From Chloroflexia bacterium (GTDB taxonomy: Bacteria; Chloroflexota; Chloroflexia; QHBQ01; JADMIH01), in assembly GCA_036399775.1 (NCBI GenBank), contig DASWMJ010000009.1:3866-67865 (forward strand): 64,000 nucleotides of DNA. The letters run 5' to 3'. The position numbers and the translations under genes are program-made. Positions 1,459 to 60,371 of the stretch are shown here, in pieces. How positions within the stretch are numbered: position 1 is the stretch's first letter; each line of letters opens with the position of its first letter. Under the pieces are notes generated by a model, which saw only the letters and a list, made by a program, of their open reading frames with translations, searched no databases and was not told the origin of the DNA.

Positions 1459-1460
1459 CG

Positions 1461-1552
1461 AATTTTGAATTCTAAATTCTAAATTTTGAGTTATCCGCCT
1501 ATTTCAGAGGTTGTCTGAATTTAGAATTCAAAATTCAAAACTCAAAATTCAG
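1461..1552. repeat. Inverted pair of AT-rich tandem-heptamer arrays (AATTCTA/AACTCAA type) flanking a ~25-bp centre
   Basis: aattttgaattctaaattctaaattttgag ... aatttagaattcaaaattcaaaactcaaaattc. The arms are approximately reverse-complementary and the element sits between two permease genes. Confidence 0.7.
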
Positions 1553-1574
1553 AGAAGGGTTGGAGTGACAAACT

Positions 1575-2783
1575 ATGGCAACGTACATGTTGCGGCGGTT
1601 TTTGCAGAGTATCGGTTTTATTGCTATTGCCTGGCTCATTGTGTACTCGGTAGTTGTGCTATTGATACCCAACGGGCCGAAGCAGAGTTATGATCGCCAG
1701 ATACAGGCATTTCGAGAGATGAGCGGGCTGACTGACGTGAGCAGCCCGGAAACCGACCTGCTGGCACAGCGCTACAAGGTTGACAAGCCCTGGCCGCTCA
1801 ACTTCTTCTATTGGCTATTCGACCCCGACGTCAGGCCGGTAGAAGGTGCGACTGGAGGGCCTTTCGGGCAGCCAGTAGAGCACAAGCCGGTCATAGTAGA
1901 CATACAGATTGGGGGCCTGACCCTTCACGGAGCGGGCATTCTTACGGGGGACTTCGGCCAATCGGTCCGAGTGTACAGGGGCCGCCTAGTCGCAGATCTG
2001 GTGAGAGAAGCATGGCTGCATACCGCTATTCTAGTGGGTCTGTCGCTGGTGATCGCGGTAGCGCTCGCGGTGCCGGTTGGGATAGTTGGCGCTGTGCGGC
2101 AACGCTCTAAGCTAGACCACGCGTTGACCTTCTTCTCGTTTGCGGGGTTCTCGATGCCCCTCTTCCAGATCGGCCTGGTACTTATGATCTGGCTGGCCGT
2201 GTTCCCATACTTCTGGCACACCAGGGACGGTTGGACGTGGATGCCTTACTTGCCCGCAATCGGCGTGTCGGATCCCGACCAGTACGATAACTGGATAAAT
2301 CGTATCTACCATCTCATATTGCCTACGCTCACGTTGGCGCTCCCGCAGATAGTGCTGCTGTCGCGTTATATCCGCTCGTCCCTGGCAGAAGTGTTGAAGC
2401 AGGACTATATACGTACGGCCCGCGCTAAAGGACTATCCACGCGGCGCGTGGTGTGGAAGCACGGTTTGCGTAACGCCCTGATACCGCTCATCACGGTCGT
2501 AGGCGTGATGCTGCCCAGCCTGGTTTCCGGCGCGATTATCGTTGAGACCCTATTCGGCTATCCCGGCGTGGGCCAGATGTTTTACAAAGGGCTGGGCGGC
2601 TGCCTGCCGACCCTGATAGCCGGCGATACCTGTCCTGAGGGTGGATATCCAATAGACTATCCCCTGGCCCTCGCTCTGACCCTCATATTCGTGGCGATAG
2701 TGGCTTTCTCCAATCTCATCACCGACTATCTCTACACCCTGGCCGACCCCAGGATAAGTCTCACGGCGCGGCAACAGGGTTGA
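1575..2783 (+). CDS. ABC transporter permease, DppB/OppB-like, with an internal insertion
   Basis: 402 aa with TM segments. Motif region ...YIRTARAKGLSTRRVVWKHGLRNALIPLITVVG... is the characteristic permease signature. It is ~90 aa longer than typical DppB. Confidence 0.85.
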   Translation: MATYMLRRFLQSIGFIAIAWLIVYSVVVLLIPNGPKQSYDRQIQAFREMSGLTDVSSPETDLLAQRYKVDKPWPLNFFYWLFDPDVRPVEGATGGPFGQPVEHKPVIVDIQIGGLTLHGAGILTGDFGQSVRVYRGRLVADLVREAWLHTAILVGLSLVIAVALAVPVGIVGAVRQRSKLDHALTFFSFAGFSMPLFQIGLVLMIWLAVFPYFWHTRDGWTWMPYLPAIGVSDPDQYDNWINRIYHLILPTLTLALPQIVLLSRYIRSSLAEVLKQDYIRTARAKGLSTRRVVWKHGLRNALIPLITVVGVMLPSLVSGAIIVETLFGYPGVGQMFYKGLGGCLPTLIAGDTCPEGGYPIDYPLALALTLIFVAIVAFSNLITDYLYTLADPRISLTARQQG

Positions 2784-2813
2784 TGATGTAGCATATCCCT
2801 CTCAGGTTTAGGC

Positions 2814-2857
2814 AAAGGGTAGGGTTGAATCAAGTAGCAACCCTACCCTTTGTTTGT
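2814..2857 (+). terminator. Rho-independent terminator-like hairpin
   Basis: Perfect 15-bp stem caaagggtagggttg / caaccctaccctttg with a 10-nt loop, followed by a tttgtttg T-tract. Lies immediately after the permease stop. Confidence 0.6.
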
Positions 2858-2926
2858 CGTAACACTGACGCTACACCGCACAACACTGTTGCAGCGCCGT
2901 AAAATACAGGAACGCCATCTTACCAT

Positions 2927-3054
2927 CCTTGTCATTCTGAGCGTAGCGAAGAATCTCGTCCCTCGCGTATGCTCTTGCCCTTGCATTCCCCGTCTACGCT
3001 CCCCGGCTTTGTACGCGAGGGACGAGATTCTTCGCTGCGCTCAGAATGACAAGG
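2927..3054. repeat. MITE-like palindromic element A, copy 1 (~43-bp inverted arms, GTCATTCTGAGCG-AGCGAAGAATCTCG core)
   Basis: Left arm ccttgtcattctgagcgtagcgaagaatctcgtccctcgcgta and its reverse complement tacgcgagggacgagattcttcgctgcgctcagaatgacaagg. A second copy is at 58691-58859. Confidence 0.65.
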
Positions 3055-3201
3055 GGAAGGGGGTTCGTTACCCTCTACATTATGCCCCACTTCACAGCCG
3101 CCTTACTAACTTCTGTATAAGTTTTCCCCAACTCCGCATCCCCGTGCTATAATAGTCGCACACTAAAACATACGTGCTAATATCCACCGTAACGGCACCT
3201 C

Positions 3202-5928
3202 ATGAAGTGCCTGCCAAGACGAGAAAAGGTCAGCCCTATGCCATCAGCCCCCGCAAAGAAATCAACCAGGCCCGCCGCGCCTACTTGGTCGAAGGTGAGC
3301 GGTAGCAGCAACACTCCTCGGACGTCCGCTTCAAAGTCCACCGGCGCAAAGAACAGTTCTCGACCTGCATCTTCTTCCGCGCGCAACGCTGCCGGTAAAG
3401 TGAAGGCGCGCAGTACGGCGCGTGCGTCTCGTGCCGCTTCGTCTCCGCCATTTGAGATACCCGCGCATCTACGGCGGGAGATAATGGCGCTGGCTATGCT
3501 GGCGGTGGCGGGGCTGTTCGTGGTGGGGCTGCTTAGCTGGTCGAGTGGCGGCCAGGGTATCGTAGGCGTCATGGGTGGCGTGGTGGCGCAGTTGTTCGGA
3601 GTGCTGGCGTGGGTGGTGCCGGTTGCGCTGGCTGCCGGGGCCGTCGTGCTCCTGCTGGGTGCGCGCTCTGATGCTCGGTGGCTTTCCCCGTTGATGCCGT
3701 TGGGCCTCTCCATAATGCTGCTTGGGCTGATGGGTTTCGCCCATCTCTTCACTAACGGGCAGGGGGCGGCTGATAGCGGGCAGGGTGGCGGCTATGTCGG
3801 TCTCGCCATCTCTACATTCCTGTCAGACTTCCTCACCAGCGCGGGCGCGGGGGTAGTGCTTGCCGCGCTCATCCTGATCGGCTTCATGCTGGCCTTCGGG
3901 GTATCTCTGGCGCAGGTGGTACGCGGTATAGGCCGCCCCACCGTCGCCGCCGGACGCCTCACAGGTAAAGCTATAGGCGAAGCAAGCACCCAGGTATCGC
4001 GCATTCTTGATGAGAGGCAGACAAAATCTAAAATCCGGGTGCCCTCTGGGCGACCAAAATCCAATATCAACACAGAGCCTGTGCGAATAAACGGGCTGGA
4101 TACTTCTCTTGAAGCAAGTGATACCTCCGCGCTACCTACTTTTGACGTGTTGTCGGAGGTCGGTGGGGAGGCGATTGACCCGGCCTCTGCACCCACAGAG
4201 GTTGTGAATCTCCTGGGCGATAAGAGTGCGACGCCGGAAAACGGCAAGGCCAAGCCCGACCCGGTGATAAACATCCGCAAGTCGGATAAGAAGGCGGGGA
4301 CTACCGAACCGACGCTCGGCCCGCAAGAGCCTATCCAGTCGCCGTTGGGCTACATCTGGAACCTGCCTCCCATGAATTTGCTTGAAACGACCAGCGAATT
4401 GAAGGTGAGCCAGGCCGACATCAAGGCCAAGATAAAGGTGATAGAGGACGCCCTGCAATCGTTCAACGTGGAGGCGACGGTGCGCGAGGTCAACACAGGC
4501 CCCGCCGTCACGCAGTTCGCCATCGAGCCGGGCACGGGGGTGCGCGTCAACCGCATAACCGCGCTGGACAAAGACCTGGCATTGGCCCTCGCCGCCCCTG
4601 ACATACGCATCGAAGCGCCAATACCGGGGCAGTCCCGCGTTGGTATAGAGGTGCCCAACGTGTCTCTACAGGTGGTGGGCCTGCGGAGTATCCTGGAGGC
4701 TGACGCCTTCCAGGTCAGCAAGGGCCGGCTGAAGATCGCGCTGGGGCGGGACACGCACGGCCAGCCTGTGGTGACGGACCTCGCCAAGCTGCCTCACATA
4801 CTGGTGGCCGGGGCGACTGGTAGCGGCAAGTCGGTCTTCCTCAACTCGATGGTGATAGGCTTCCTGACGCAGTTTACGCCCGACGACCTTCGCATGCTGA
4901 TGATAGACCCCAAGCGGGTAGAGTTGACCGGCTTCAACGGCATCCCCCACCTCCTGCGTCCTGTGGTCACGGATGTGCGCCTCGAAAAAGACCAGTCCCG
5001 GCCTCAGAATCCGAAGTCTAAGGGAGAAGCCGACCGGGAGCGCCCCCTGACGGCTGTGGAGGCGTTGAAGTGGGCGTTGTGGGAGATGGAGAGGCGTTAT
5101 AAACTCTTCGCGAATGGAAAGCGCGGGAAGGACGGCATCAGCAAGGTATTCCGCAACATAGAGCAGTATCGCACTTTCCTGAAGGAAAACCCCGAAACCA
5201 ACATGGAATACCTGCCGTATATAGTCATCATCATAGACGAGCTTGCCGACCTGATGCTTACCGCGCCAGAGGAGGTAGAGACATCGCTGTGCCGCCTGGC
5301 GCAGCTTGCCCGCGCAACCGGCATACATTTAGTGGTCGCCACCCAGCGCCCCTCGGTGGACGTGGTGACGGGCCTCATCAAGGCCAACTTCCCTGCGCGT
5401 GCTGCATTCGCTGTCACGTCGCAAGTGGACAGCAAGGTTATCCTGGATGGGGGTGGTGCCGAGAAGCTATTGGGACGCGGCGACATGCTCTACACGGCTT
5501 CCGACGAGAGCAAGCCTGTGCGTATCCAGGGTACGTTCGTATCGGATGCCGAGTCGGATAAGGTAGTGCATTTCTGGCGCAAGCAGTTGCCGTCGGAGAA
5601 AGAGCTAGCCGAGACGGGCGTGGAGGCCCCGGTACAGCCGATGCCGATGCCCGATTGGCTGGGCACGGGCGACGCCAACGAAGAGAGCGAGCTTCTTGAG
5701 CAGGCGATAGAGCTTGTGAAGAAGAGCCAGTACGTATCGGTCTCTATGCTGCAACGCAAGCTACGTATCGGCTACAACCGCGCAGCCCGCATCGTGGAGC
5801 AGATGGAGGAGCTAGGGCTGATCTCGCCCGCGAATGGCGACAGCCGGGGCAAGCCACGCGAAGTGTTGCTGGGCGCGCCCGACCCCCGCGCCGACGATAT
5901 GCGAGAACTGGTAGGTGACGAGGACTAG
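3202..5928 (+). CDS. ftsK: DNA translocase FtsK/SpoIIIE
   Basis: N-terminal TM region, long low-complexity linker, then motor domain with Walker A LVAGATGSGKSVFLNSM, Walker B IIIDELADLM, and the LVVATQRPSVDVVTGLIKANFPARAAFAVTSQVDS motif. C-terminal gamma-like winged helix (VSMLQRKLRIGYNRAARIVEQMEELGLI). The true start may be the Met at 3238. Confidence 0.9.
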   Translation: MKCLPRREKVSPMPSAPAKKSTRPAAPTWSKVSGSSNTPRTSASKSTGAKNSSRPASSSARNAAGKVKARSTARASRAASSPPFEIPAHLRREIMALAMLAVAGLFVVGLLSWSSGGQGIVGVMGGVVAQLFGVLAWVVPVALAAGAVVLLLGARSDARWLSPLMPLGLSIMLLGLMGFAHLFTNGQGAADSGQGGGYVGLAISTFLSDFLTSAGAGVVLAALILIGFMLAFGVSLAQVVRGIGRPTVAAGRLTGKAIGEASTQVSRILDERQTKSKIRVPSGRPKSNINTEPVRINGLDTSLEASDTSALPTFDVLSEVGGEAIDPASAPTEVVNLLGDKSATPENGKAKPDPVINIRKSDKKAGTTEPTLGPQEPIQSPLGYIWNLPPMNLLETTSELKVSQADIKAKIKVIEDALQSFNVEATVREVNTGPAVTQFAIEPGTGVRVNRITALDKDLALALAAPDIRIEAPIPGQSRVGIEVPNVSLQVVGLRSILEADAFQVSKGRLKIALGRDTHGQPVVTDLAKLPHILVAGATGSGKSVFLNSMVIGFLTQFTPDDLRMLMIDPKRVELTGFNGIPHLLRPVVTDVRLEKDQSRPQNPKSKGEADRERPLTAVEALKWALWEMERRYKLFANGKRGKDGISKVFRNIEQYRTFLKENPETNMEYLPYIVIIIDELADLMLTAPEEVETSLCRLAQLARATGIHLVVATQRPSVDVVTGLIKANFPARAAFAVTSQVDSKVILDGGGAEKLLGRGDMLYTASDESKPVRIQGTFVSDAESDKVVHFWRKQLPSEKELAETGVEAPVQPMPMPDWLGTGDANEESELLEQAIELVKKSQYVSVSMLQRKLRIGYNRAARIVEQMEELGLISPANGDSRGKPREVLLGAPDPRADDMRELVGDED

Positions 5929-6487
5929 AAGCATTGACGTAACCGGAAGGAGGCGGAAGGTGGACGTAAGACCTTACAACAACGGCAACTTGATTGCGGG
6001 TGTGGCTCTTATCCTGCTTGGCTTGATCTTTTTCGTCGCCACGCAGGGCGCGTTCAACCTCAACTGGGGCACCATATGGCCCGTCTTTCCCATGCTGGCG
6101 GGCGCTCTCGTTCTATTCCAGGCACTTACTATCGGTGACGCCAATCGCCGCGTCGGAATGGTGTTCGCCGGTACCATACCTTTTTTAGTAGGCGCGTTTT
6201 TCTTCACGGTTACTCTAGGTCTCTTTTCGTGGGGCGACATGGCGACCCTCTGGCCCATGTTTCCTCTGATAGTGGGCGTGGCCTTTTTCGCCGCGTACAT
6301 GGCTTCGGGCCGGCAAGAGAATAACCTTCTTATGTCCGCCATCGTGATGACGGGCGTGGGCGTGGTACTCCTGGCTGTGTTGCAGATAGGCGGATCGTAC
6401 GCGGCCCTCGGTAAGCTGTGGCCGATCATCCTGATAATCGCGGGCGTATTGATGCTCGTGCCGGGGCTGCGCAGGGCCAGGGGTTGA
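5915..6487 (+). CDS. Hypothetical small membrane protein (4-5 predicted TM helices)
   Basis: ORF with hydrophobic stretches LIAGVALILLGLIFFVAT, LAGALVLFQALTIG, FLVGAFFFTVTLGLF and VVLLAVLQIGG. Overlaps the ftsK stop by 14 nt; start uncertain. Confidence 0.5.
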   Translation: MTRTRSIDVTGRRRKVDVRPYNNGNLIAGVALILLGLIFFVATQGAFNLNWGTIWPVFPMLAGALVLFQALTIGDANRRVGMVFAGTIPFLVGAFFFTVTLGLFSWGDMATLWPMFPLIVGVAFFAAYMASGRQENNLLMSAIVMTGVGVVLLAVLQIGGSYAALGKLWPIILIIAGVLMLVPGLRRARG

Positions 6488-6594
6488 ACACTCCTGCGTG
6501 TCAGGCACACGCCTCTAACGACAAGAGTCCAGGGTGAGCAATTAGCGCTCACCCTGAACTGTTGTTATTTGACGTAGAAGCAGAGCGCTAGCGT

Positions 6595-9181: not shown

Positions 9182-9236
9182 ACGTCAAGATGGCATGTGC
9201 TCCGGTAGGGTAAGCCAGACTTCGCCTGCGGGGAGG
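9182..9236. repeat. Direct repeat DR1-left: displaced copy of the 3' end of gene 10564..11487
   Basis: acgtcaagatggcatgtgctccggtagggtaagccagacttcgcctgcggggagg aligns with 10561-10616 (6 substitutions plus 1 indel). On the minus strand it still encodes PAGEVWLTLPEHMPS-stop. Confidence 0.8.
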
Positions 9237-9335
9237 ACTTGGCAGTTGTAGGCTCGTCATGTGAAATTACAGCGGAGTATGCCACTTGAATAAACGCCAA
9301 GTTGCAGTTTTTCTGGCCGTTTCCGATGAGAATAG

Positions 9336-10388
9336 CTATGAGCCGAGTTTGCCGTAGGCCTTAAGAATACGATATGTATCTTTACCGTCTATAAAGCAGT
9401 AGTAACGTGGCTGATAGGCATATCGAGCCAATGCCGCAAGTACATGTCTAACCTTATGATCAATATCATGGGCATGTTGGACGATCAACAAATCCGCTTG
9501 CACAGTTGCTAATCTATAGAGCTGGTCATTGGCCTTACCCTGATTGCTACTCAATGTCATAGGGCTAAAACGGGCAGGACCCTTCAGTAAGAACGCTGCT
9601 GTAACTCTCTTGCCTCCAATATGCAAAGCAGGAGTGAAGTGATCCATTTGTTCGCCTCCCCAGTCTTTACCAGTTGTATCTCCAAGCAAATCAGCTAATC
9701 TCGCCTTTATAACCTTCTCTGGCAGGTTCTTCATTTGAGATTGCCAAACAGCTAATGCAGGCGGCATTATCTTTCGACACTCACTAAACTCATCTATATT
9801 TTCTGCATGGATCTCGAATGTTTCGTAGCCAGGCCATATAACTGAATAGTCTAAATCGTGATGAGCAGAGTTATGGGTAACGACAGGCAAGCCGATCACT
9901 AAAGGCTGGATGACCACTTGCTTCTCATCAAAACTGTGTATCCGTCCTATGATTGAAACAGGTGCGCCTTCAGTCAACAAGACTCTCATGGTGGTTGATA
10001 CAAAATGCTCTGGACTGAAATCTAGAATTATAGTACGTGCATCGTATACCTGTCCAATGACCTTTTGTATGCGCTCGTTATCTGATCTGAGTTTTCCAGG
10101 TGCCACACGCTCCAAACTTGCGAATACCGTCCCCTCCCGCAGGTCATGAAGAACGGCAGCTAGTGTGGGAATACGCTTATTACGACACTTGGCAAGAACA
10201 CGATCAGACAAGAACACGCTTCTGCTCTTTACACCGAAAGGGTCGGTAAGTAGGAGCAACGCAGGGAACCGAAGAGTAATCTCAGCAATTATAGAAGGTC
10301 CAATGAACGACATACACATCCGCTCATTAAGAAATCCAGGATCAACATTTACCTCATATCCATCTGAACCAAAGAGCACTCTTATCAC
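9336..10388 (-). CDS. Hypothetical protein, cargo of low-GC islet 1 (no family recognised; C-terminal region with clustered D/E/H/K residues, possibly nuclease-like)
   Basis: 350-aa ORF in clearly AT-richer DNA, GTG start (alternative GTG at 10379 has a GAGGTG RBS). Its own ~170-bp AT-rich upstream region is 10389-10560. C-terminus ...GKDWGGEQMDHFTPALHIGGKRVTAAFLLKG...LLIVQHAHDIDHKVRH.... Confidence 0.65.
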   Translation of the reverse strand: MIRVLFGSDGYEVNVDPGFLNERMCMSFIGPSIIAEITLRFPALLLLTDPFGVKSRSVFLSDRVLAKCRNKRIPTLAAVLHDLREGTVFASLERVAPGKLRSDNERIQKVIGQVYDARTIILDFSPEHFVSTTMRVLLTEGAPVSIIGRIHSFDEKQVVIQPLVIGLPVVTHNSAHHDLDYSVIWPGYETFEIHAENIDEFSECRKIMPPALAVWQSQMKNLPEKVIKARLADLLGDTTGKDWGGEQMDHFTPALHIGGKRVTAAFLLKGPARFSPMTLSSNQGKANDQLYRLATVQADLLIVQHAHDIDHKVRHVLAALARYAYQPRYYCFIDGKDTYRILKAYGKLGS

Positions 10389-10560
10389 CTCACAGTTGCA
10401 GAACTGCGACTAAAACACAGATGGGTGCATTTAAGGCTCCCATACCACAAGTAGAATCAGAATATCCTATATGGTTGTGCCGAAGATGGGATGCGAACTC
10501 ACAGTTATGCTAGATATAAGCAATCGACAAGACACCCTTCCATGATGAGGTGTCTGCCCC

Positions 10561-10616
10561 ACGTCAAGACGGCATATGCTCCGGCAGGGTGAGCCACACC
10601 TCGCCTGCGGGGGAGG
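10561..10616. repeat. Direct repeat DR1-right: functional 3' end of gene 10564..11487
   Basis: acgtcaagacggcatatgctccggcagggtgagccacacctcgcctgcgggggagg; partner of 9182-9236. Confidence 0.8.
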
Positions 10617-12619: not shown

Positions 12620-13618
12620 ATGAAAACGACGAAAGTCAGAGAGAAGGTTGCCGAGCAGCCGCCGGTGGCTGAGGAGGATGAGCCACGAAAGGAGAGGGCG
12701 GTGCAGGCGGCGCTCTTCACGCTCAACGGGAGGGGGGAGCTTACCGACCCCGTAGCCGACATCCCGGCGCTCGGCCCATCTTCCAGCCTGGACGTGGCGC
12801 GCTGGTGGTACAAGCGCCACCTAGAGCAGCAGAAGCGGCCCATCAACACGATAGACTCCTATATGTACGACCTTGCGCTCTTCCAGGAGTCGCTTGGCAA
12901 CAAGACGCTCGACCGGGTGAACAACACCGACATAGCGAACTTCCTGGGGCAGGCGAACAACAAGTCTACCCGCAAGCGGCGGCTTACCTCCTTGCAGGGC
13001 ATGTACCGCTACCTGGTGAACAAAGAGAAGATACTGCCCAAGAACCCCTGCGACAGCTTCTTCCCCGACTACATCCCCCTCAAGACGCCGCGCACCCTCT
13101 TCCCGCAAGAGCAGGACGCTATGCTTGAGGCCGCCCGCGACGAGAACTCGCGCACTTACCTGATCGTGTACCTGCTGCTGAAGCTGGGGCTGACGCGCAC
13201 CGAACTGCTCGCGCTGAAGGTAGACCACATAGACGTGAGCAACCCCGACCAGCCCATCGTCTACATTTACTATGACGAGATACGCTGGCAGCCGAAGGAG
13301 CGCAAGCTGGCGGCGGATGCCGAGTTCACCGATGCCTTCCTGCGGTACGTGGAGGAATACAGCCCGGTAGCGCGCATGTTCAATCTGCTGCCCCAGTCCA
13401 TCAACAAGATAGTGGACCGTATAGCCGAGGCCGCAGGGATAGGCAAGACGGTGACGCCCCAATCCCTGCGCGATACCTTCGCCGTTGAGCAGGCGAAGAT
13501 CGGGGCCGACGAAAAGAAGCTGCTGCTAATACTGGGCCTCGCGCCCGACAGCCGCAACCGCAAGAGCGTGCAGAGGTACATGAAGCTGGCCGCCCCGCCC
13601 GTCGCTGGCGTGGTGTGA
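12620..13618 (+). CDS. Tyrosine-type site-specific recombinase/integrase (divergent active-site residues)
   Basis: GGAGG RBS then ATG at 12620. N-terminal SAM-like core-binding region (WWYKRHLEQQKRPINTIDSYMYDLALFQESL). Catalytic-domain motifs LTRTELLALKVDHIDV (Arg-I), QSLRDTFAV (HxLRH box with H->Q and H->D), LGLAPDSRNRKSVQRYMKL (Tyr). Confidence 0.75.
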   Translation: MKTTKVREKVAEQPPVAEEDEPRKERAVQAALFTLNGRGELTDPVADIPALGPSSSLDVARWWYKRHLEQQKRPINTIDSYMYDLALFQESLGNKTLDRVNNTDIANFLGQANNKSTRKRRLTSLQGMYRYLVNKEKILPKNPCDSFFPDYIPLKTPRTLFPQEQDAMLEAARDENSRTYLIVYLLLKLGLTRTELLALKVDHIDVSNPDQPIVYIYYDEIRWQPKERKLAADAEFTDAFLRYVEEYSPVARMFNLLPQSINKIVDRIAEAAGIGKTVTPQSLRDTFAVEQAKIGADEKKLLLILGLAPDSRNRKSVQRYMKLAAPPVAGVV

Positions 13619-32821: not shown

Positions 32822-32859
32822 CAGGTCTTGATCGTTCTCGGAGGCTTAATGCAACCACA

Positions 32860-32985
32860 CCGCCCGGCGACTAAAGTCGCGGGCAACAACAACAAAGTCG
32901 CCCTTCGGCGACTACTTTCATGGCATAGTCCGCGTAGGCGGACTTCGTAACCGTAGCCCGCGAATTCATTCGCCGGGCGGTGTCC
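32860..32985. repeat. REP-like structured palindrome, solo copy (family also flanking the IS200-like tnpA)
   Basis: ccgcccggcgactaaagtcgcgggcaac...gtcgcccttcggcgac...agtccgcgtaggcggact...cgccgggcgg. Nested hairpins. About 85-90% identical to 44149-44275 and 44738-44870. Confidence 0.7.
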
Positions 32986-44148: not shown

Positions 44149-44275
44149 TTGCCCTTGCGACTGAAGTCGCGGGCAACAAAAACAAAGTCGCCCTTCGGCG
44201 ACTACTCTATCCAATATAGTCCGCGCAGGCGGACTTCGTAATCGTTGCCCGCGACTTCAGTCGCAAGGGCAATTT
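44149..44275. repeat. REP-like palindrome, copy flanking tnpA on the 5' side
   Basis: attgcccttgcgactgaagtcgcgggcaac...gtcgcccttcggcgac...agtccgcgcaggcggact...gttgcccgcgacttcagtcgcaagggcaat. Confidence 0.75.
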
Positions 44276-44299
44276 TGACAATAGCAAAGGGGCAGGCGT

Positions 44300-44728
44300 A
44301 TGCGCGCACCTTACACGCAACTTTATCTGCATTGCGTTTGGGCAACATGGGATCGCTTGCCATTGATTACCCCTACCGTTGAGCCGCACGTTTATGCTTG
44401 TATAGCTACCAAGTGTGAGGAGCATAGTTGTGAAACGCTTGCCGTTGGTGGAATTGAGGACCATATTCACCTACTGGTACGCTTTCCTCCTACGCTTGAA
44501 ATAGCAAGAATTATGAAAGAGGTAAAAGGCGCATCGTCGCACTTGATGACACATGTGCTTACGCCGGATGTCTTCTTCAAGTGGCAAGGCGGGTATGGAG
44601 CATTCACGGTTACTAAATTTGGAGTGGATAAAGCCAGAGCCTATGTAGAGAAGCAAAAGGAGCATCACTCCGCGAACCGGTTGTTTTCAGAATGGGAACG
44701 ATACGAATTCGATGATAAAGATGCGTGA
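44300..44728 (+). mobile_element. tnpA: IS200/IS605-family Y1 transposase (TnpA; REP-associated tyrosine transposase-like)
   Basis: 142 aa. HxH motif in GIEDHIHLLVRF; N-terminus MRAPYTQLYLHCVWATWDRLPLI and ...GGYGAFTV... are typical of IS200-like TnpA. Flanked on both sides by REP-like palindromes. Confidence 0.8.
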
Positions 44729-44737
44729 TCCCCGACA

Positions 44738-44870
44738 TTGCCCAGCGACTGAAGTCGCGGGCAACAAAAACAAAGTCGCCCTTCGGCGACTACTCTCTCC
44801 TAGAGAGTCCGCCTGCGCGGACTTCGTTTCCGTTGCCCGCGACTTCAGTCGCCGGGCAATCCTCCGGCGC
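44738..44870. repeat. REP-like palindrome, copy flanking tnpA on the 3' side
   Basis: attgcccagcgactgaagtcgcgggcaac...gtcgcccttcggcgac...agtccgcctgcgcggact...gttgcccgcgacttcagtcgccgggcaat. Confidence 0.75.
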
Positions 44871-46138: not shown

Positions 46139-46228
46139 AATTTGCTATTCACCGCTTGTACGAAATCATAGAATATAGTAGGATAAAGATAGCGCAGTTT
46201 GCGCTATTTACACAAAAGGGGGTATATC

Positions 46229-46501
46229 ATGGAGAAGGCAATAAGTGCGTTCGAGGCAAGACGTAACTTTGGAAAGTTGCTACAGGACGTTGCAGCAAAG
46301 GGAGACAAGATAGTTGTAGAGCGTCACGGAGAGCCGGTGGCTGTGCTGGTGCCCATGTCAGTTTATAAGCAATGGCAATGCAACAGGGAGAGGGCATATA
46401 ACACTCTGCGGGAGATATCTGAACGGGTGAACATGTCTGAGGAAGAGGCCAATATACTCATTGAGGAGGCCATAAGCGCGGTTCGCAGAGGCGAAGATTG
46501 A
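46229..46501 (+). CDS. Type II antitoxin, Phd/YefM family
   Basis: MEKAISAFEARRNFGKLLQDVAAKGDKIVVERHGEPVAVLVPMSVYKQW; AAGGGGG RBS. Confidence 0.75.
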   Translation: MEKAISAFEARRNFGKLLQDVAAKGDKIVVERHGEPVAVLVPMSVYKQWQCNRERAYNTLREISERVNMSEEEANILIEEAISAVRRGED

Positions 46502-46920
46502 TGAAGGTGGTGGTAGACGCTAACATTATTATTAGTCGTATACTCGTGCCCACAGGCGTACCAGCACAGGTTATAGAATACCATAAGAAAACGATTGAAC
46601 TTCTGACTTCCGAGCCTATTCTTGCGGAATGTCGCAGGGTGATGCGCTACAAACGCCTTCGCGCACGTCATCATTTGACTGACGATGAGATAGATTTGGC
46701 TATTGATTCGTTTAGGGAGATTGCCGATGTGGTGGAAGGAATCATGAATCTTGATGTCATCACAAAAGACCCGGACGACAATAAGATTATTGAATGCGCG
46801 GTGGTAGGCGGGGCTGATTACATAGTAAGTGGTGACGCCCACCTACTCAATGTCGGAGAGTATAAAGGCATCAGGATTCTCTCCCCCGCAAGTTTCCTAC
46901 TCCTATTAAAACGGGCCTAG
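46498..46920 (+). CDS. PIN-domain toxin (VapC-like), overlaps antitoxin stop by 4 nt
   Basis: MMKVVVDANIIISRIL... with acidic residues at typical PIN positions (DAN, ...SGD). ATGA overlap with the upstream antitoxin. AT-richer DNA. Confidence 0.6.
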   Translation: MMKVVVDANIIISRILVPTGVPAQVIEYHKKTIELLTSEPILAECRRVMRYKRLRARHHLTDDEIDLAIDSFREIADVVEGIMNLDVITKDPDDNKIIECAVVGGADYIVSGDAHLLNVGEYKGIRILSPASFLLLLKRA

Positions 46921-47020
46921 TTCATCTTACACCGTTGCCCCACCCCACCACCCTCTGCTATACTAAGCCCTCGACAGGGGCCGATAATACACACCTTTTA
47001 TCCATCATGGAGGTGCGCGC

Positions 47021-47779
47021 ATGACGGTGACCATTCAGCAAGAGGACTGGCAGAAGGTGCTCGCCGAGGTGGTCGGCACGTTCTTTTTCTTTTTCATCGG
47101 CATAGGCAGCGTGGCGTGGGTGCAGACCGGCGGCGTGGTTTACGTGGCGCTGGCTCACGGCCTGGCGCTGGCGATAGCTATCTCGGCGTTGGGGCACATA
47201 TCGGGCGGGCACTTCAACCCCGCCGTGACGCTGGGCCTCATGGTAGCCCGCAAGATTAGCCCTATGCTGGCTCTGCTTTATATCGTAGGGCAGATAGTAG
47301 GAGGCGTGCTGGCCTGCCTCGCGGTGGCTTTTGTGCTCCCCCCAGGCACAGTCCAGAGTGCCACTCCCCATCTCGCGGGCGGCATAGGTATGCTAGAGGC
47401 GATAATCCTTGAGGCAATACTTACTTTCTTCCTGGTCATCGCCGTCTTCGGCACGGCAGTAGACCCACGCGCCACTCGCATCGGCGGCTTTGGCATCGGT
47501 CTCACCGTGTTCGCTGACATCCTGGTGGGCGGGCCAGTGACGGGCGGAGTGATGAACCCGGCCAGGGCCATTACCCCCGCCATCATCGCCCGCGACTTCC
47601 AGCCGGATATGCTAGTGTACTGGGTAGGCCCCATCGTAGGAGGCATAATAGCAGCCCTCCTATACTCAATGGTCTTCCTGCCGAAGGGTGACGAGCCGAT
47701 AATCAAAGCCCCCGACGCCACCGATAGACTCGTAGAGCCGCCTCTGAGCGAGCCTGGGCTGGTGACAAACAGAAAGTAA
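47021..47779 (+). CDS. Aquaporin / MIP-family channel
   Basis: Two NPA boxes: [14 protein letters not shown] and [12 protein letters not shown]. Confidence 0.88.
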
Positions 47780-48784: not shown

Positions 48785-50164
48785 ATGATAACGCGGCGTG
48801 CTCTTTATTTGCTGCTGCTCGCGGCACCTATACTCGCGCTGGCGACTATAGTGCCCGTCGCTGTATGGGCGGCTGCTCTTTACCTGGCGGGTATGCTGGC
48901 GCTGCTGGCCGCCGACTTTTGGCTGTCGCCCAAGCCTTCCGACTTCAGGCTTGCACGGGAGAATGAAAGCAAGCTCTCCCTCGGTGCAGACAACATGGTG
49001 CGTATCGCTATCAGGCGGCTGGGCGCGCCCGGCGGCCAGGGCCTGAGAGATGCCCCCGTGCCCTTCCTGGTGCGCGACGAGCCTCCGGTCGAGTACATCG
49101 CCAGCGACGTATTTCTCCCACGCAGCAACGAGGCAAATAACTCAAAACTCAAAACTCAAAACTCAAAACTCGAAATCGGTCCAGGGGAGACGGCGGAAGT
49201 CAGCTATACCGTCAAGCCGTTGCGGCGCGGGGACTATGCGTTCGGTGGGTGCCACCTGCGCTATGGCGGCGTGCTGGGCCTCATCCTCCGCCAGCATCGC
49301 TACCCCATCGGTGCGCCCGTGAAGGTCTACCCTAACCTACTGGAAGTGCGTAAATATGAATTGCTGGCGCGGCGGGACCAGCTATTCGAGATAGGGCTGA
49401 AGAATGCTCGGCGCATAGGGCAGGGCACCGAGTTCGAGCGGCTGCGTGACTATGAGCGCGACGACGACTACCGCCGCATCAACTGGCCCGCCACCGCCCG
49501 CCTGCACAAGCCCATCACTACGGATTACCAGCCCGAAAGGAGCCAGAGCGTTATCGTCATGCTCGACGCGGGGCGATTGATGACCGCGCCCCTCGGCCCG
49601 CTCTCCAAGCTCGATTATGCTATCAACACGACGCTACTGCTGGCATACGTAGCTATAATTCGGGGGGACCGGGTCGGCCTCCTTACCTTCGCCGATAGAG
49701 TGACGGGCTACTGGGAGCCGGACAAGGGCCGCAAGCAGTTCCTCGCGCTGCTGGATGCCCTCTACAAGGTGCAGCCCCAGCAAGTTGAGGCCGATTATAT
49801 GCGGGCGAGCGCGTTCCTCTCTACGAGGCGCAGCAAGCGCAGCCTGGTGGTGCTCTTCACCGACATTATAGACAGGCAGCAGGCCGACGTGATGGTGCGC
49901 GGCTTCGGGCGGCTGGCCCCACGCCACCTGCCTGTGGCCGTGACTATGGCCGACAACGAAGTGCTGACTATGGCCCACCGCGAACCGTCCGATGCCCAGC
50001 AGATGTACGAGAAGGTAATCGCCCAGCAACTCCTGGACGACCGCGTGAAGGCTCTGGACGCCCTCCAACGCCGGGGCGCGCTCACCATAGACGTGCCCGC
50101 CGACAAGCTGACGCCTGCGGTAGTGAACAAGTACCTTGAGCTAAAGGCGCGAGGGAGGTTGTAA
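48785..50164 (+). CDS. DUF58-domain protein (vWA-like, MoxR partner)
   Basis: DYERDDDYRRINWPATARLHKPITTDYQPERSQSVIVMLDAGRLM is the DUF58 core. Contains an in-frame AACTCAA heptamer array (49139-49177) encoding NSKLKTQNSKLEI. Confidence 0.8.
   Translation: MITRRALYLLLLAAPILALATIVPVAVWAAALYLAGMLALLAADFWLSPKPSDFRLARENESKLSLGADNMVRIAIRRLGAPGGQGLRDAPVPFLVRDEPPVEYIASDVFLPRSNEANNSKLKTQNSKLEIGPGETAEVSYTVKPLRRGDYAFGGCHLRYGGVLGLILRQHRYPIGAPVKVYPNLLEVRKYELLARRDQLFEIGLKNARRIGQGTEFERLRDYERDDDYRRINWPATARLHKPITTDYQPERSQSVIVMLDAGRLMTAPLGPLSKLDYAINTTLLLAYVAIIRGDRVGLLTFADRVTGYWEPDKGRKQFLALLDALYKVQPQQVEADYMRASAFLSTRRSKRSLVVLFTDIIDRQQADVMVRGFGRLAPRHLPVAVTMADNEVLTMAHREPSDAQQMYEKVIAQQLLDDRVKALDALQRRGALTIDVPADKLTPAVVNKYLELKARGRL
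50081..50164. repeat. Direct repeat DR2-left: native 3' end of the DUF58 gene (84 bp)
   Basis: ctcaccatagacgtgcccgccgacaagctgacgcctgcggtagtgaacaagtaccttgagctaaaggcgcgagggaggttgtaa. Partner at 52063-52146 has 5 differences. Confidence 0.85.
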
Positions 50165-50538
50165 AATCGGTTTCAGATCCCCACTCTTCGTATCGTCTTC
50201 AGCCATTGCAATCATTCCATTAGGTTATCAGCCTCGAGTAGGTTGCAGAGGACTTTGAGATGCTTAGGCGAGGGTGATAATTGTGCTGGCTAGCTGTGCT
50301 CAATAATATCTTGGGAAAGTTGAGCTTTGCGTAACGAAAGCCACATAGTATGAATATTCTTCAAAATAGACGTGTAAAATGTGGGAAACTGTGGTACAAT
50401 GAGGTGTACGGAGTGCATATGTTTATGTAATGCCTCGTTTTTCCGCCCTCAGTATAGAGTTCTGGCACCAAGCTATTCAAGAGAAATCAGCATTTTGGGG
50501 TAGGGTGCTAAGAGCTAAAGGAATAAGGGACGAGTGTT

Positions 50539-50862
50539 GTGCCATTCACTAAGGGATTCGTATCTGAATCAGAACTACTCGACCACTTTGATAGGCATAA
50601 TAAACTGATTGGCGCGCATGATGAGCAGCATTACTTACAGCTTGCTGACACGTTTTTAGGCGGTCCCAAAGGCCCCACAACGCTGGAGTGCCCCGAAAGA
50701 GCGCGAGATGGGTGTTTGACTAGATTTGATTATGTTACAAATGAATTTGGTGTGCTGACCCCTGATAGCTATATTCTGTCGTATTATATACCGGAGCCGA
50801 AACGTCATAAACAGCGTACCAATACAAAGTATTTTCAGGCTGATTGCAGGAGCAAAGAATGA
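50539..50862 (+). CDS. Hypothetical protein (107 aa), islet 2 gene A
   Basis: ORF in AT-rich islet, GTG start, overlaps the next ORF by 19 nt. No family recognised. Confidence 0.45.
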   Translation: MPFTKGFVSESELLDHFDRHNKLIGAHDEQHYLQLADTFLGGPKGPTTLECPERARDGCLTRFDYVTNEFGVLTPDSYILSYYIPEPKRHKQRTNTKYFQADCRSKE

Positions 50863-51248
50863 ACTATACATGTCCAGTTTGCGGATACGACAAATTGATT
50901 AGCCCGCCAGCGAACTATCATATTTGCCCATCCTGTGGCACCGAGTTTGAATACGATGACTTTGCCACGAGCCATGATCTGTTGCTTAAGCAGTGGATAC
51001 GAGAAGGGATGCCCTGGCATAAGACGCGAACTGGCCCGCCGCCCGGATGGGATCCGGTCGTGCAGATCTTCCAAGCCGGACTTGGTGCTGCTCTAATCGA
51101 ATTTATGGCAAGGGAAGCCCGGCAGAGCTACGAGGCTATTACACTGGGTACGGTGCAGCCCTACGTTTCAGGTAGCATCAAGCTTACTACTAACGCGCCT
51201 GCACACCAATTGAGCACTCAGAACTGTTTTGCCTTCGCCTCTAGTTAA
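50844..51248 (+). CDS. Hypothetical zinc-ribbon protein (134 aa), islet 2 gene B
   Basis: N-terminal CPVCGYDKLISPPANYHICPSCGTEF (two CxxC pairs). Confidence 0.5.
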   Translation: MQEQRMNYTCPVCGYDKLISPPANYHICPSCGTEFEYDDFATSHDLLLKQWIREGMPWHKTRTGPPPGWDPVVQIFQAGLGAALIEFMAREARQSYEAITLGTVQPYVSGSIKLTTNAPAHQLSTQNCFAFASS

Positions 51249-51266
51249 GTACATGAGAGAAAAGCA

Positions 51267-51725
51267 ATGCCCAAGCTTGTCGTCTTCGCGCCATGCCTAA
51301 AGGTGATTATCAGCGAGAGAGATGACTCACTCTCGCTGATAGCGCTAATGGATGCTATAAAAGTAAGTGTTGCTGAGGGTGCGGAAGTGCCTGCTGATGC
51401 CAAAGTACCTAATGCCTGGGACATCCTCGCTTTTTGGCGTAACTCAGCGGATGATGCAGGAAAGGAATACGAGCAACGTACGCGGCTTTTACTACCTAAT
51501 GGCGAAACGAGTGTAGAAGCAACAATGTCCTTTTCAGGTAATAATCGTTCGCATCGGAATGTGATCAATATTACCGGAGTTCCGGTTGGACAGGCAGGTG
51601 AATGCTCCCTTCAATTATGGCTTCGCGAAGCGGGTGCGGATGATTGGGGAGATCCTGTAGCAGATTATTCTTTGATGGTCATCCATGATACTGTACCAGT
51701 AGAGACGGAGCAACCCGAAGAATAG
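51267..51725 (+). CDS. Hypothetical protein (152 aa), islet 2 gene C
   Basis: ORF 19 nt after gene B, same strand. No family recognised. Confidence 0.45.
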   Translation: MPKLVVFAPCLKVIISERDDSLSLIALMDAIKVSVAEGAEVPADAKVPNAWDILAFWRNSADDAGKEYEQRTRLLLPNGETSVEATMSFSGNNRSHRNVINITGVPVGQAGECSLQLWLREAGADDWGDPVADYSLMVIHDTVPVETEQPEE

Positions 51726-51878
51726 ATAGTAGGAGCAGCCCACGTCATGCTTCCTGTGTGAGACCAAGAAATCCGGCGGGTTACCCGGCAGTGCTTAGGG
51801 TATCGGCGGAGGCACTGAATGGAGAGGTGCTCATAAGATCCTCCTGACTAAAGAGCTCAGTCTTATCATGACTGAGCT

Positions 51879-52046
51879 CTAATCTTCGGCTTCCTCGTCA
51901 AAATCCTCATAGCCCCAATCAACATCGTCCAGTTCATATATGCTCAAAAGTTCGTTCTTTAGATCCTTCCCTTCTACCTCGTTGGAGAAAACCTCTTCTG
52001 AATACACCTGTAGCATACCTTTTTCATCCCTTTCAATCTCAGTCAT
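51879..52046 (-). CDS. Small acidic hypothetical protein (55 aa), islet 2 gene D (start trimmed)
   Basis: MTEIERDEKGMLQVYSEEVFSNEVEGKDLKNELLSIYELDDVDWGYEDFDEEAED. The longer ORF to 52184 is antisense to the duplicated DUF58 3' end. Confidence 0.35.
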   Translation of the reverse strand: MTEIERDEKGMLQVYSEEVFSNEVEGKDLKNELLSIYELDDVDWGYEDFDEEAED

Positions 52047-52062
52047 TTTCCATAAGCCCGTC

Positions 52063-52146
52063 CTCACCATAGATGTGCCTGTCGACAAGCTCACGCCTGC
52101 GGTGGTGAACAAGTACCTTGAGCTAAAGGCGCGAGGGAGGTTGTAA
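52063..52146. repeat. Direct repeat DR2-right: second copy of the DUF58 3' end
   Basis: ctcaccatagatgtgcctgtcgacaagctcacgcctgcggtggtgaacaagtaccttgagctaaaggcgcgagggaggttgtaa. Encodes LTIDVPVDKLTPAVVNKYLELKARGRL-stop, versus native ...PADKL... (4 synonymous and 1 A->V change). Confidence 0.85.
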
Positions 52147-52329: not shown

Positions 52330-52728
52330 ATGAAAAGTAAAGTAATCAAGTCTGATGCGGAGTGGAAGCAACAACTTACCCCGGATCAGTACCGGGTCGC
52401 CCGCCAGAAGGGTACGGAGCGCGCCTTCACAGGCGAATACGCTCACACCCACGACGAGGGCGTGTATAAGTGCGTGTGCTGTGGGGCGGAACTATTCAGC
52501 TCGGACACCAAATTCGAGTCGGGCACCGGCTGGCCCAGCTTCTACGCGCCCATCTCGGAGGAGAATGTCAGCACGGAGACCGACGACAGCTTCTGGATGC
52601 GGCGCACAGAAGTGATGTGTAGCGCCTGCGACGCCCACCTGGGCCACGTCTTCGATGACGGCCCCCAGCCGACGGGCCTGCGCTATTGCATCAACTCGGC
52701 ATCTCTCAAGCTGGATAGGGAAGCGTAA
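52330..52728 (+). CDS. msrB: Peptide methionine sulfoxide reductase MsrB
   Basis: CxxC...CxxC zinc site and GTGWPSF...RYCINSASL catalytic motif. Confidence 0.88.
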
Positions 52729-53358: not shown

Positions 53359-53586
53359 TCAAGCAACCGAAGGAGATTGATCTGGTTGATACCGAAGGGC
53401 CATTAGCATGCTATCATGCAAAGCAAGCATTGCATAGGTCCGGCCCTCGTCGTCGCTGAATTCTACTTCAAAGGCGTCAGGCGCAAGTATCTCCACAACG
53501 GTGCCTACCTGTCCGCGACGAAGACCCCTTTCCGGTAAGTCCTCCGTCAGTGCTACCACACTAAGAAGGGTGATTTCGTTATTCAT
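53359..53586 (-). CDS. DUF4926-like small protein
   Basis: LLSVVALTEDLPERGLRRGQVGTVVEILAPDAFEVEFSDDEGRTYAMLAL matches my recollection of the DUF4926 pattern (recall only). Confidence 0.55.
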   Translation of the reverse strand: MNNEITLLSVVALTEDLPERGLRRGQVGTVVEILAPDAFEVEFSDDEGRTYAMLALHDSMLMALRYQPDQSPSVA

Positions 53587-53596
53587 TGATACCTCC

Positions 53597-53929
53597 TCAT
53601 GGTATATAGCAGCTTATGAGCCTCGGAAAATCCTCTCTGGCACGAACAATCCAGGCACTCCGCACCGTAGCCCTTCCACGAGGCCCAGTCATTACAAAGT
53701 CCAACACGTAGCGTTGCCCGTATTCATCCCCTTGACCAATAGTTGCATCCTCATTCTCAGCCGCATTACGAAGGGCGAAATACAACTCGCTTACATGAAT
53801 AGCTGTTAATCCAAGTACTGATAGGAACACCCTGGCTTTGTGACGCCCTCGTAGATGCTCGAAGCTCAAGCAGTAGTCACGAAGTTTCTCAATATCTACA
53901 ACAGCACGCTCCGGGTTCGGTAGCTTCAC
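53597..53929 (-). CDS. DUF6883-like protein, upstream partner of the DUF4926 gene
   Basis: IEKLRDYCLSFEHLRGRHKARVFLSVLGLT resembles the DUF6883 signature (KLTDYLLS..HP.GRHKARFF; recall only). 10-nt gap to the next gene, same strand. Confidence 0.5.
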   Translation of the reverse strand: MKLPNPERAVVDIEKLRDYCLSFEHLRGRHKARVFLSVLGLTAIHVSELYFALRNAAENEDATIGQGDEYGQRYVLDFVMTGPRGRATVRSAWIVRAREDFPRLISCYIP

Positions 53930-55202: not shown

Positions 55203-55252
55203 AAGGCTTATGTACCACTATAAGTATAAGCCTGTAGAGGAAGAGTGGCAAA

Positions 55253-55413
55253 TGCGGAGTGCGGAGTGCGGAGTGCGGAAGGCGGAGTGCGGAGTGCGGA
55301 GTGCGGAGTGCGGAATATAGCCGAGCACTAACGCCAACATTACCGATTACCCAAATTGGCCTATCTTAATTCCGCATTCCGCACTCCGCATTCCGCACTC
55401 CGCATTCCGCATT
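55253..55413. repeat. Inverted pair of heptamer arrays (GCGGAGT x9 / TTCCGCA x6) around a 53-bp centre
   Basis: gcggagtgcggagtgcggagtgcggaaggcggagt... atagccgagcactaacgccaacattaccgattacccaaattggcctatcttaa ...ttccgcattccgcactccgcattccgc. Confidence 0.8.
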
Positions 55414-60250: not shown

Positions 60251-60371
60251 CGTATTGCGTAGTGCGTATTTCGTATTGCAATGGAGTTAGTGAACTTGAG
60301 TTGTGGAAGCTAGCTATTACTAACCCTCTTTGATTGGGACCTTACGCAATACGAAATACGCACTACGTAAG
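60251..60371. repeat. Inverted pair of heptamer arrays (CGTATTG/CGTAGTG) around a ~75-bp centre
   Basis: cgtattgcgtagtgcgtatttcgtattgca ... ttacgcaatacgaaatacgcactacgtaa (exact reverse-complement arms). Confidence 0.8.

Follow-up and report, generated by a model that had tools for sequence, protein, structure and literature searches.

Mobile elements whose tyrosine integrases target the 3' ends of genes leave behind a rebuilt gene and a displaced, orphan copy of its former 3' end. Islands at tRNA genes, e14 and phage 21 at icd in Escherichia coli, and ICESt1 with its related cis-mobilizable elements (CIMEs) at fda in Streptococcus thermophilus are examples, and cargo-only tycheposon remnants invite the same comparison. 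Among toxin–antitoxin (TA) systems, MqsA is a zinc-binding antitoxin. In polymorphic toxin loci, the place of the immunity gene is directly downstream of the toxin (PMC3482391). Colicin D and the colicin-D-like C-terminal toxins of CdiA (CdiA-CTs), which act in contact-dependent growth inhibition (CDI), are tRNA anticodon or acceptor-stem nucleases with His, Arg, Thr, Tyr and Lys residues (PMC9086364). Here, we analyzed a 64-kb stretch of DNA from a soil Chloroflexia bacterium (hereafter the window), in which three small co-directional genes, designated O1, O2 and O3, lie between two copies of the 3' end of a DUF58 gene. We consider it probable that this segment is a horizontally acquired islet that lacks an integrase, is flanked by attachment-site (att)-like repeats, was inserted at the end of the DUF58 gene and carries a toxin–immunity module.

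A toxin-domain gene with a zinc-ribbon partner

The closest described system is a solved CDI toxin–immunity complex (PDB 8EY4). A profile built from five O1 homologues and compared with the PDB matched its toxin chain, 8ey4_A from E. coli O32:H37, with an E value of 6e-4 over 73 aligned positions. An AlphaFold2 model of O1, computed from a 68-sequence alignment, reached a predicted local distance difference test score (pLDDT) of 96.3 and consists of two helices (residues 10–24 and 29–41) followed by a four-stranded antiparallel sheet, which is the BECR core fold. When this model was searched against the PDB with Foldseek, 8ey4_A was again the top match, with template modeling (TM) scores of 0.64/0.76. 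The next matches were the colicin D tRNase domain (5znm, 1tfo and 1v74; probability 1.0, TM about 0.6), which shows the same order of helices and strands, and, more weakly, HigB. Additionally, O1 retains H16, H20, R54, R62, E69, S81 (Thr in most members) and Y82, which are conserved across the 68 sequences. On the basis of these profile and model comparisons, O1 is most likely a colicin-D-like RNase toxin, specifically a tRNase.

Curated libraries fail to recognize O1, and no Pfam model covers its family; scans of the trio and of O4, a small opposite-strand open reading frame (ORF), against Pfam, NCBIfam, PADLOC and PHROGs gave nothing above threshold. Word-indexed protein searches returned only three O1 and two O3 homologues, and an exhaustive profile search was needed to delineate the O1 family. 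Across 1.84 billion representatives, this search retrieved 1,819 proteins with E values of 1e-3 or less. Of the best 150 of these 1,819, roughly half are free-standing and about 100–120 aa long; the other half carry the O1 domain at the extreme C terminus of proteins of 160–750 aa, and the long members that were sampled are RHS-repeat proteins and one DUF637 (CdiA-type) protein. The domain also ends a 2,617-aa hemagglutinin-repeat CdiA-like protein on Rhizobium binae plasmid p3 and is fused to HK97-type portal proteins in IMG/VR contigs. BLAST searches of plasmids and phages with the islet DNA, O3 and O1 returned only Rhizobium and Ochrobactrum matches to the O1 domain, on plasmids, and scans of viral contigs with the O1 and O3 alignments returned nothing.

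Free members of the family share the N-terminal motif MP(F/Y)T(K/R)GF, which is absent from the fusions, as these align from profile position 7. Given that it has a conserved N terminus of its own, the free form represents a separate subfamily rather than a broken fragment. O1 of the window is such a free 107-aa ORF; it has its own start and is not found at the C terminus of a delivery protein. It is therefore a stand-alone homologue and not a polymorphic toxin. Unlike 8EY4 and colicin D, it lacks a delivery part of the VENN pretoxin, Rhs or CdiA kind.

The position and features of O2 point to a partner of O1. An O2-family ORF lies directly 3' of the O1 domain in about 10 independent loci, in stand-alone modules (loci L024, L025 and L030–35), after portal fusions (L039, L041 and L042) and in L043 and L046, and the ATGA overlap between the two genes (50859–50862) recurs in L024, L030, L033 and the P0126 contig. 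On R. binae plasmid p3 (L065, NZ_CP071607.1, about 287,880–288,130), an unannotated O2-family ORF (E = 8e-34) follows the CdiA-like gene and is probably the missing cdiI. The O2 family comprises at least 128 clusters. Its alignment shows a 70-aa domain, CPVCGY..PP.DF.ICPSCGTEFGYDD..S..ELR..W...GA.WWS...P.P..WNP..QL, beyond which lies a tail of low complexity that varies between members. These tails often end in -AA or -AS and resemble protease degrons, which would fit a labile antitoxin.

O2 scores 21.8 bits (E = 1.6e-4) against the Pfam family Cys_rich_CPCC (PF14206), below the gathering threshold of 24.5. About 11 O2-family members, among those listed, carry precomputed PF14206 matches, and the immunity chain of 8EY4 was deposited as a 'Cys_rich_CPCC domain-containing protein'. 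As in 8EY4, then, the partner encoded directly downstream of the toxin is apparently a small Cys_rich_CPCC zinc-ribbon protein. Unlike the 8EY4 protein, O2 carries a further helical segment, WxxxGxxWWS, as well as a long tail of variable sequence, and it stays below the CPCC threshold. Homology between O2 and the 8EY4 immunity chain is likely but not established. O2 is unrelated to ImmD, and the third gene further separates this locus from the 8EY4 and colicin D/ImmD pairs. From its sequence and gene order, we predict that O2 is the cognate immunity protein, or antitoxin, of O1 and is translationally coupled to it.

The third gene belongs with the first two. O3 homologues (24–82% identity) directly follow O1–O2 in L025, L030/31, L033–35 (Pyrinomonadaceae), L043 and L046, so that at least three lineages conserve O1–O2–O3 as a unit. 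The O3 model (pLDDT 88) is an Ig-like, all-beta sandwich. Against DUF6941 (PF22091), O3 scores 17.1 bits, below the cut-off of 27; two of four homologues match this family. There is precedent for two immunity proteins acting on one toxin (PMC11699363), and O3 is perhaps an accessory component, such as a second neutralizer, a stabilizer or a sensor.

Several features are shared with intracellular TA systems. As in the type II pairs MqsR/MqsA and HigB/HigA, the toxin gene comes first, the toxin has a BECR RNase fold, and the overlapping partner gene encodes a protein of roughly 130 aa with an N-terminal Cys4 ribbon. Unlike these pairs, O1 and O2 fall outside the RelE/HigB/MqsR and MqsA families, and O2 has no recognizable helix-turn-helix; library scans of O2 detected no helix-turn-helix, ribbon-helix-helix or AbrB domain. 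The third co-transcribed gene and the location on a mobile islet recall tripartite toxin–antitoxin–chaperone systems, in which the third protein is a SecB-like chaperone and not an Ig-like sandwich. The cassette also resembles orphan Rhs/CDI modules and MuF-type phage polymorphic toxins in being bracketed by a repeat of the upstream gene's 3' end (PMC3482391, PMC5576092). It differs from them in that the upstream gene is the housekeeping gene DUF58, O1 is unfused and a delivery function is absent.

A sequence-only reading of the window had found no recognizable family in the trio, had considered defense, toxin/immunity and regulatory roles all open, and had suggested an undescribed multi-gene module whose co-occurrence in other genomes should be examined. 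The first of these statements did not hold, as O1 and O2 match the solved CDI complex and genuine CdiA/Rhs loci, and the homology and context of O1 and O2 now favor toxin/immunity among the roles. The trio does recur, being kept in at least five further independent loci and in several phyla. Its core, O1 with O2, is a known kind of module, namely a polymorphic-toxin-derived, TA-like one on an integrase-less, att-flanked islet; the addition of O3 is the undescribed part. The N-terminal zinc ribbon of O2 was also read correctly; the length of 134 aa was counted from an upstream TTG and becomes 129 aa from the ATG.

In functional terms, O1 would arrest translation as a tRNase, O2 would bind and block it, and O3 may assist. 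Because O1 lacks a delivery domain, action inside the cell is most likely, and the module would then serve as an addiction or abortive-infection type of TA system.

An islet bounded by copies of the DUF58 3' end

The islet is bounded by an 84-nt direct repeat in which 79 of 84 bases are identical (within-window BLAST E = 2e-32). Its edges are abrupt: similarity starts at 50081 and 52063 and does not extend past the TAA stop codon. All five mismatches lie in the first 42 nt, and the last 42 nt are identical. The two copies translate as LTIDVPADKLTPAVVNKYLELKARGRL and LTIDVPVDKLTPAVVNKYLELKARGRL, with four synonymous changes and one Ala-to-Val replacement. The Ala is kept in 16/16 relatives in which the DUF58 3' end was read, so the copy joined to the gene (copy A) is the functional end and the distal copy (copy B) is an orphan. 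Since the differences are mostly synonymous, two functional alleles had accumulated most of them before coming to share one genome. Integron attC sites and a transposon target duplication were both considered for this repeat and were ruled out by its length and by the absence of inverted ends.

The two copies enclose 1,898 bp (50165–52062) with a GC content of 0.41–0.50, compared with 0.60–0.65 in the flanking genes. At third codon positions (GC3), O1, O2, O3 and O4 have values of 0.42, 0.55, 0.41 and 0.45, respectively, and DUF58, msrB and msrA have 0.77, 0.77 and 0.74 (0.74–0.80 when MoxR and the AlkZ-related gene are included). The DNA between the repeats is thus foreign by composition. The leader that precedes O1 matched nothing in Rfam and shows no similarity to the leader of a related cassette (L024); an Rfam scan of the whole window also found nothing, and a promoter/terminator scan gave fewer sites than expected by chance. 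The hairpin between the convergent genes O3 and O4 has a predicted energy of -21.6 kcal/mol (z = -5.4 against shuffles). Whether O4 is coding is uncertain.

The window belongs to the 181-kb contig Ga0334960_000007 of JGI metagenome 3300034402. The same structure is present on a 237-kb contig of an independent ENA assembly (ERZ27253115), and the islet interior is identical to a Logan unitig; the islet is therefore no assembly artifact. This 2,000-nt unitig (L023) stops inside the repeat, as k-mer collapse predicts, and is uninformative on a circular form.

The sequence-only reading had described this duplication, with its four synonymous differences and one Ala-to-Val change, and the AT-rich DNA with a co-directional trio and an opposite-strand acidic ORF; the alignment, ORF map and GC values agree with this. 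It had also named two observations that would speak against insertion, an 84-mer repeated many times across the genome and a trio native to the MoxR/DUF58 locus. Neither was seen: a word-7 search of the window found no third copy of the repeat, and the trio is absent from the locus in other genomes. Among 28 related loci retrieved, about 22 include the DUF58 3' end (16 from GTDB and six from metagenomes), and 0/about 22 have the trio or a duplicated DUF58 3' end. The relatives retrieved with the DUF58 protein are all metagenome-assembled genomes of Chloroflexia/Chloroflexota, at 70–85% amino acid identity; DUF58 orthologues at 75–88% occur in Chloroflexia metagenome-assembled genomes, the closest at 88%. 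Their conserved downstream neighbors are an opposite-strand SpoIIM-like gene and then an RDD-family gene. Between DUF58 and the SpoIIM-like gene lie 0–5.3 kb of variable DNA, including VOC-like and PIN-like genes, and owing to this variability the site after DUF58 can be regarded as a hotspot. Insertion of the islet is plausible from its composition, its absence in relatives and the bracketing repeat, rather than having been seen directly.

Table 1. Coordinates of the DUF58 islet, its flanking genes and a second islet in the window.
Feature	Position	Strand	Remarks
DUF58/vWA target gene of the MoxR operon, 3' end duplicated	48785..50164	+	Pfam DUF58 E 6.6e-29, VWA_2
Proximal copy A (attL-like)	50081..50164	+	Last 27 codons and stop of DUF58; conserved Ala retained
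AT-rich non-coding leader	50165..50538	none	374 nt, GC about 0.41-0.44
O1	50539..50862	+	107 aa
O2	50859..51248	+	129 aa from ATG; ATGA overlap with O1
O3	51267..51725	+	152 aa; begins 18 nt past O2 stop
Candidate bidirectional terminator	51852..51880		Hairpin with an 11-bp stem, between the converging O3 and O4
O4, putative acidic ORF	51879..52046	-	55 aa; no homologues outside the same organism
Distal copy B (attR-like)	52063..52146	+	Orphan DUF58 3' end with Ala-to-Val change; native high-GC3 DNA after
msrB, first native gene past the islet	52330..52728	+	Pfam SelR E 5.5e-54, GC3 0.77
Islet 1, enclosed by 3'-end repeat of AlkZ-related glycosylase gene	9182..10612	-	52-nt repeat, 88%

The same architecture occurs elsewhere. 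In islet 1 of the window, the repeat copies (9182–9233 and 10561–10612) end 3 nt past the stop codon of the AlkZ-related gene, and the cargo is a 350-aa ORF (9336–10388, GC3 0.40) without a Pfam or PADLOC match. A hairpin directly follows the proximal repeat of this islet. The third example is an acidobacterial, Pyrinomonadaceae-like locus (L033, islet at 1159–6557), where 61 nt from the 3' end of icd are duplicated (90% identity, with a frameshifting indel), the copy beginning exactly at the icd stop codon. The copies lie 5.3 kb apart and enclose the trio, a gene for a monomeric isocitrate dehydrogenase and IS1595 fragments; the duplicated icd is of the dimeric type. Across the three islets, the homology boundary thus lies between +0 and +3 nt of the stop codon. 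A further direct repeat of the window, D11 (37–151/2643–2757), was considered as another islet and rejected, as it stems from two paralogous ABC permease genes.

The trio itself was considered as integration machinery, and this was rejected, since O1 is a toxin domain and, in L033, the trio points the other way and lies at a distance from the repeats. Elsewhere, related cassettes stand behind differing genes, such as an ABC ATPase gene in L024 and a MazE/insertion-sequence context in L030, where a flanking repeat is absent. From these placements and the L033 arrangement, the trio is cargo. No recombinase gene lies in any of the three islets. The window shows a single one, of the Xer-like tyrosine type (about 12620–13618, plus strand; Phage_int_SAM_1 and Phage_integrase), which lies outside islet 1, two genes away from it, and 37 kb from the DUF58 islet.

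Among described elements, the islet most resembles CIMEs: the repeats correspond to the target-gene 3' end, the gene is restored, an orphan fragment is left, the composition is foreign and a recombinase is absent, which is itself a defining CIME trait. The use of icd as a target in L033 parallels e14 and phage 21. Unlike CIMEs, the islet is only 1.9 kb long, no related integrase-bearing element was identified and the host is a member of the Chloroflexia.

We favor site-specific integration of an element bearing an att mimic, whose integrase was lost or never carried, as in CIMEs. The incoming circular DNA would have brought in its own version of the terminal 84 nt, derived from the DUF58 gene of a related strain. 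Recombination within this stretch would have restored DUF58 as far as the stop codon (copy A) and moved the former 3' end downstream by 2 kb, leaving it orphaned (copy B). Because it lacks a recombinase, the islet may be the remnant of a larger element or may be mobilized in trans, as CIMEs are.

Weighing the competing explanations

Several observations weigh against an att-flanked, integrase-less islet with a toxin–immunity module. Library scans found no recombinase among O1–O4, no integrase lies within about 30 kb of the DUF58 islet or was called at 19–60 kb of the window, no excised circular form was seen and the two islets of the window share no end motifs. As related cassettes stand behind different genes, no single att site is used. 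The nearest relatives, at 88% amino acid identity or less, carry a different gene after DUF58 and so differ from the presumed pre-insertion layout; none of the retrieved relatives has msrB downstream of DUF58. The empty site that the sequence-only reading predicted, with the DUF58 stop followed by msrB, was accordingly not found; the nearest relatives (75–88% amino acid identity) have the SpoIIM-like gene there, and exact look-ups of DUF58, msrB and O2 for an empty site returned only the same organism. We attribute this to the closest relative being only 88% identical. The recurring integration mechanism suggested by the sequence-only reading is read from architecture: the layout recurs in islet 1 and L033, and no integrase lies in or next to the DUF58 islet. 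As for the module, the O2 profile matches the 8EY4 immunity chain (8ey4_I) only over the zinc ribbon, with E values of 0.02–0.2; O2-family genes also occur without O1, after ruvB in L026–29 and in several phage contigs; and O3 has no functional analogue.

The lack of an integrase would be explained directly if the islet had arrived by RecA-dependent recombination, either of a circularized fragment or by one-sided, homology-facilitated illegitimate recombination, from a related Chloroflexia strain already bearing the cassette behind DUF58, with the homology of 84 nt or more being duplicated on integration. RecA-type displacement is the route by which new toxin/immunity cassettes push old ones into orphan positions in Rhs/CDI loci, and this toxin family shows a displaced-module pattern in phage portal genes, with duplicated segments of 141–870 nt. 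The 94% identity of the repeat copies with mostly synonymous differences fits two alleles of one gene, and cassettes behind unrelated genes are also compatible with such a route. We nevertheless find it doubtful: the homology ends at the stop codon, within 0 to 3 nt, in three independent cases, as an att mimic predicts; stretches of 52–84 nt at 88–94% identity are poor RecA substrates; and an allele resembling a donor was not found. With the available data the two routes cannot be told apart, and we infer site-specific integration as the favored one. That copy B is instead what is left of a recently duplicated, second DUF58 gene, or of a MoxR locus that was rearranged and truncated, with the low-GC DNA arriving separately, is highly improbable. 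Such a history would agree with msrB following DUF58 in no relative, which indicates that the locus was rearranged in this lineage, but it would require the same coincidence three times, in islet 1, the DUF58 islet and L033, each with stop-codon-bounded repeats bracketing foreign DNA, and the window contains no other DUF58 fragments.

A different assignment of function would keep the islet but make it protective, with O2, and possibly O3, defending against O1-type toxins of neighbors or phages and O1 kept as a silent recombination reserve. CdiA, Rhs and portal-fused toxins all use the O1 domain, O2-family genes also occur alone, and stand-alone toxin cassettes have been described as recombination reservoirs (PMC3482391). 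This seems unlikely to us, given that O1 has its own start and the conserved N terminus specific to stand-alone forms, its candidate catalytic residues are intact and the 4-nt O1–O2 overlap is kept across phyla. Furthermore, the Pfam-annotated part of the window, about 0.6–60 kb, holds no Rhs or CdiA gene with which O1 could recombine. A toxin–immunity module acting within the cell is therefore the function that we prefer for the islet.

A bolder version of that preferred reading may also be put forward. The trio could be an undescribed tripartite intracellular toxin system, domesticated from polymorphic toxins and governed by an Ig-like controller, that spreads between phyla on integrase-less islets; these would in every case restore the target gene precisely as far as the stop codon, which would point to a trans-acting recombination system. 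We offer this tentatively and hold it to be questionable. If true, the Ig-like O3 could be, for example, a phage-sensing or degradation-controlling component.

Neighboring features and biological meaning

Further modules and repeats surround the islet. A low-GC Phd/PIN TA pair and a MIP channel gene (46199–47779) are wedged between the DUF4350 and MoxR genes of the operon; Phd/PIN pairs occur at the same position in relatives L010, L013, L014 and L019, and the spacing between the operon genes differs by 0.5–1.3 kb from relative to relative. Just past msrA, a DUF4926/DUF6883 gene pair (53359–53929, minus strand, GC about 0.50) is possibly another TA-type module. A Y1 (IS200/RAYT-type) transposase gene (44157–44852) is flanked by 108-nt direct repeats (90%) that resemble repetitive extragenic palindromic elements, and a third copy lies at 32857–32973, 11 kb upstream. 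Heptanucleotide units repeated in tandem occur across the window, many of them between genes, for instance at 234–277, 1461–1550, 55238–55409 and 60251–60367. One such array, AAAACTC x5 (49139–49175), lies in frame within DUF58 and encodes NSKLKTQNSKLE; a similar peptide occurs in the RDD protein of L010.

In the wider O1 family, the portal fusions of IMG/VR contigs are followed by duplicated portal segments: 213 nt at 92% identity in L039 (3386–6334), three copies of 700–870-nt segments in L041 (523–5640) and 141 nt at 97% in L042 (86–2559). The arrangement resembles an array of polymorphic toxins carried on portal genes, in which modules have been displaced.

Current concepts are not overturned by the islet. 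Rather, three hypothetical genes become a testable toxin–immunity module, and a toxin domain family of about 1,800 clusters at 50% identity, for which Pfam has no model, is defined by sequence, fold and context. The att-like 3'-end repeats, found around two islets of the window and around one acidobacterial islet, provide a sequence signature by which small islets lacking an integrase can be sought in uncultured bacteria of the soil. Should O3 turn out to act as a regulator or as a second immunity factor, the trio would represent a new layout in toxin–antitoxin biology.

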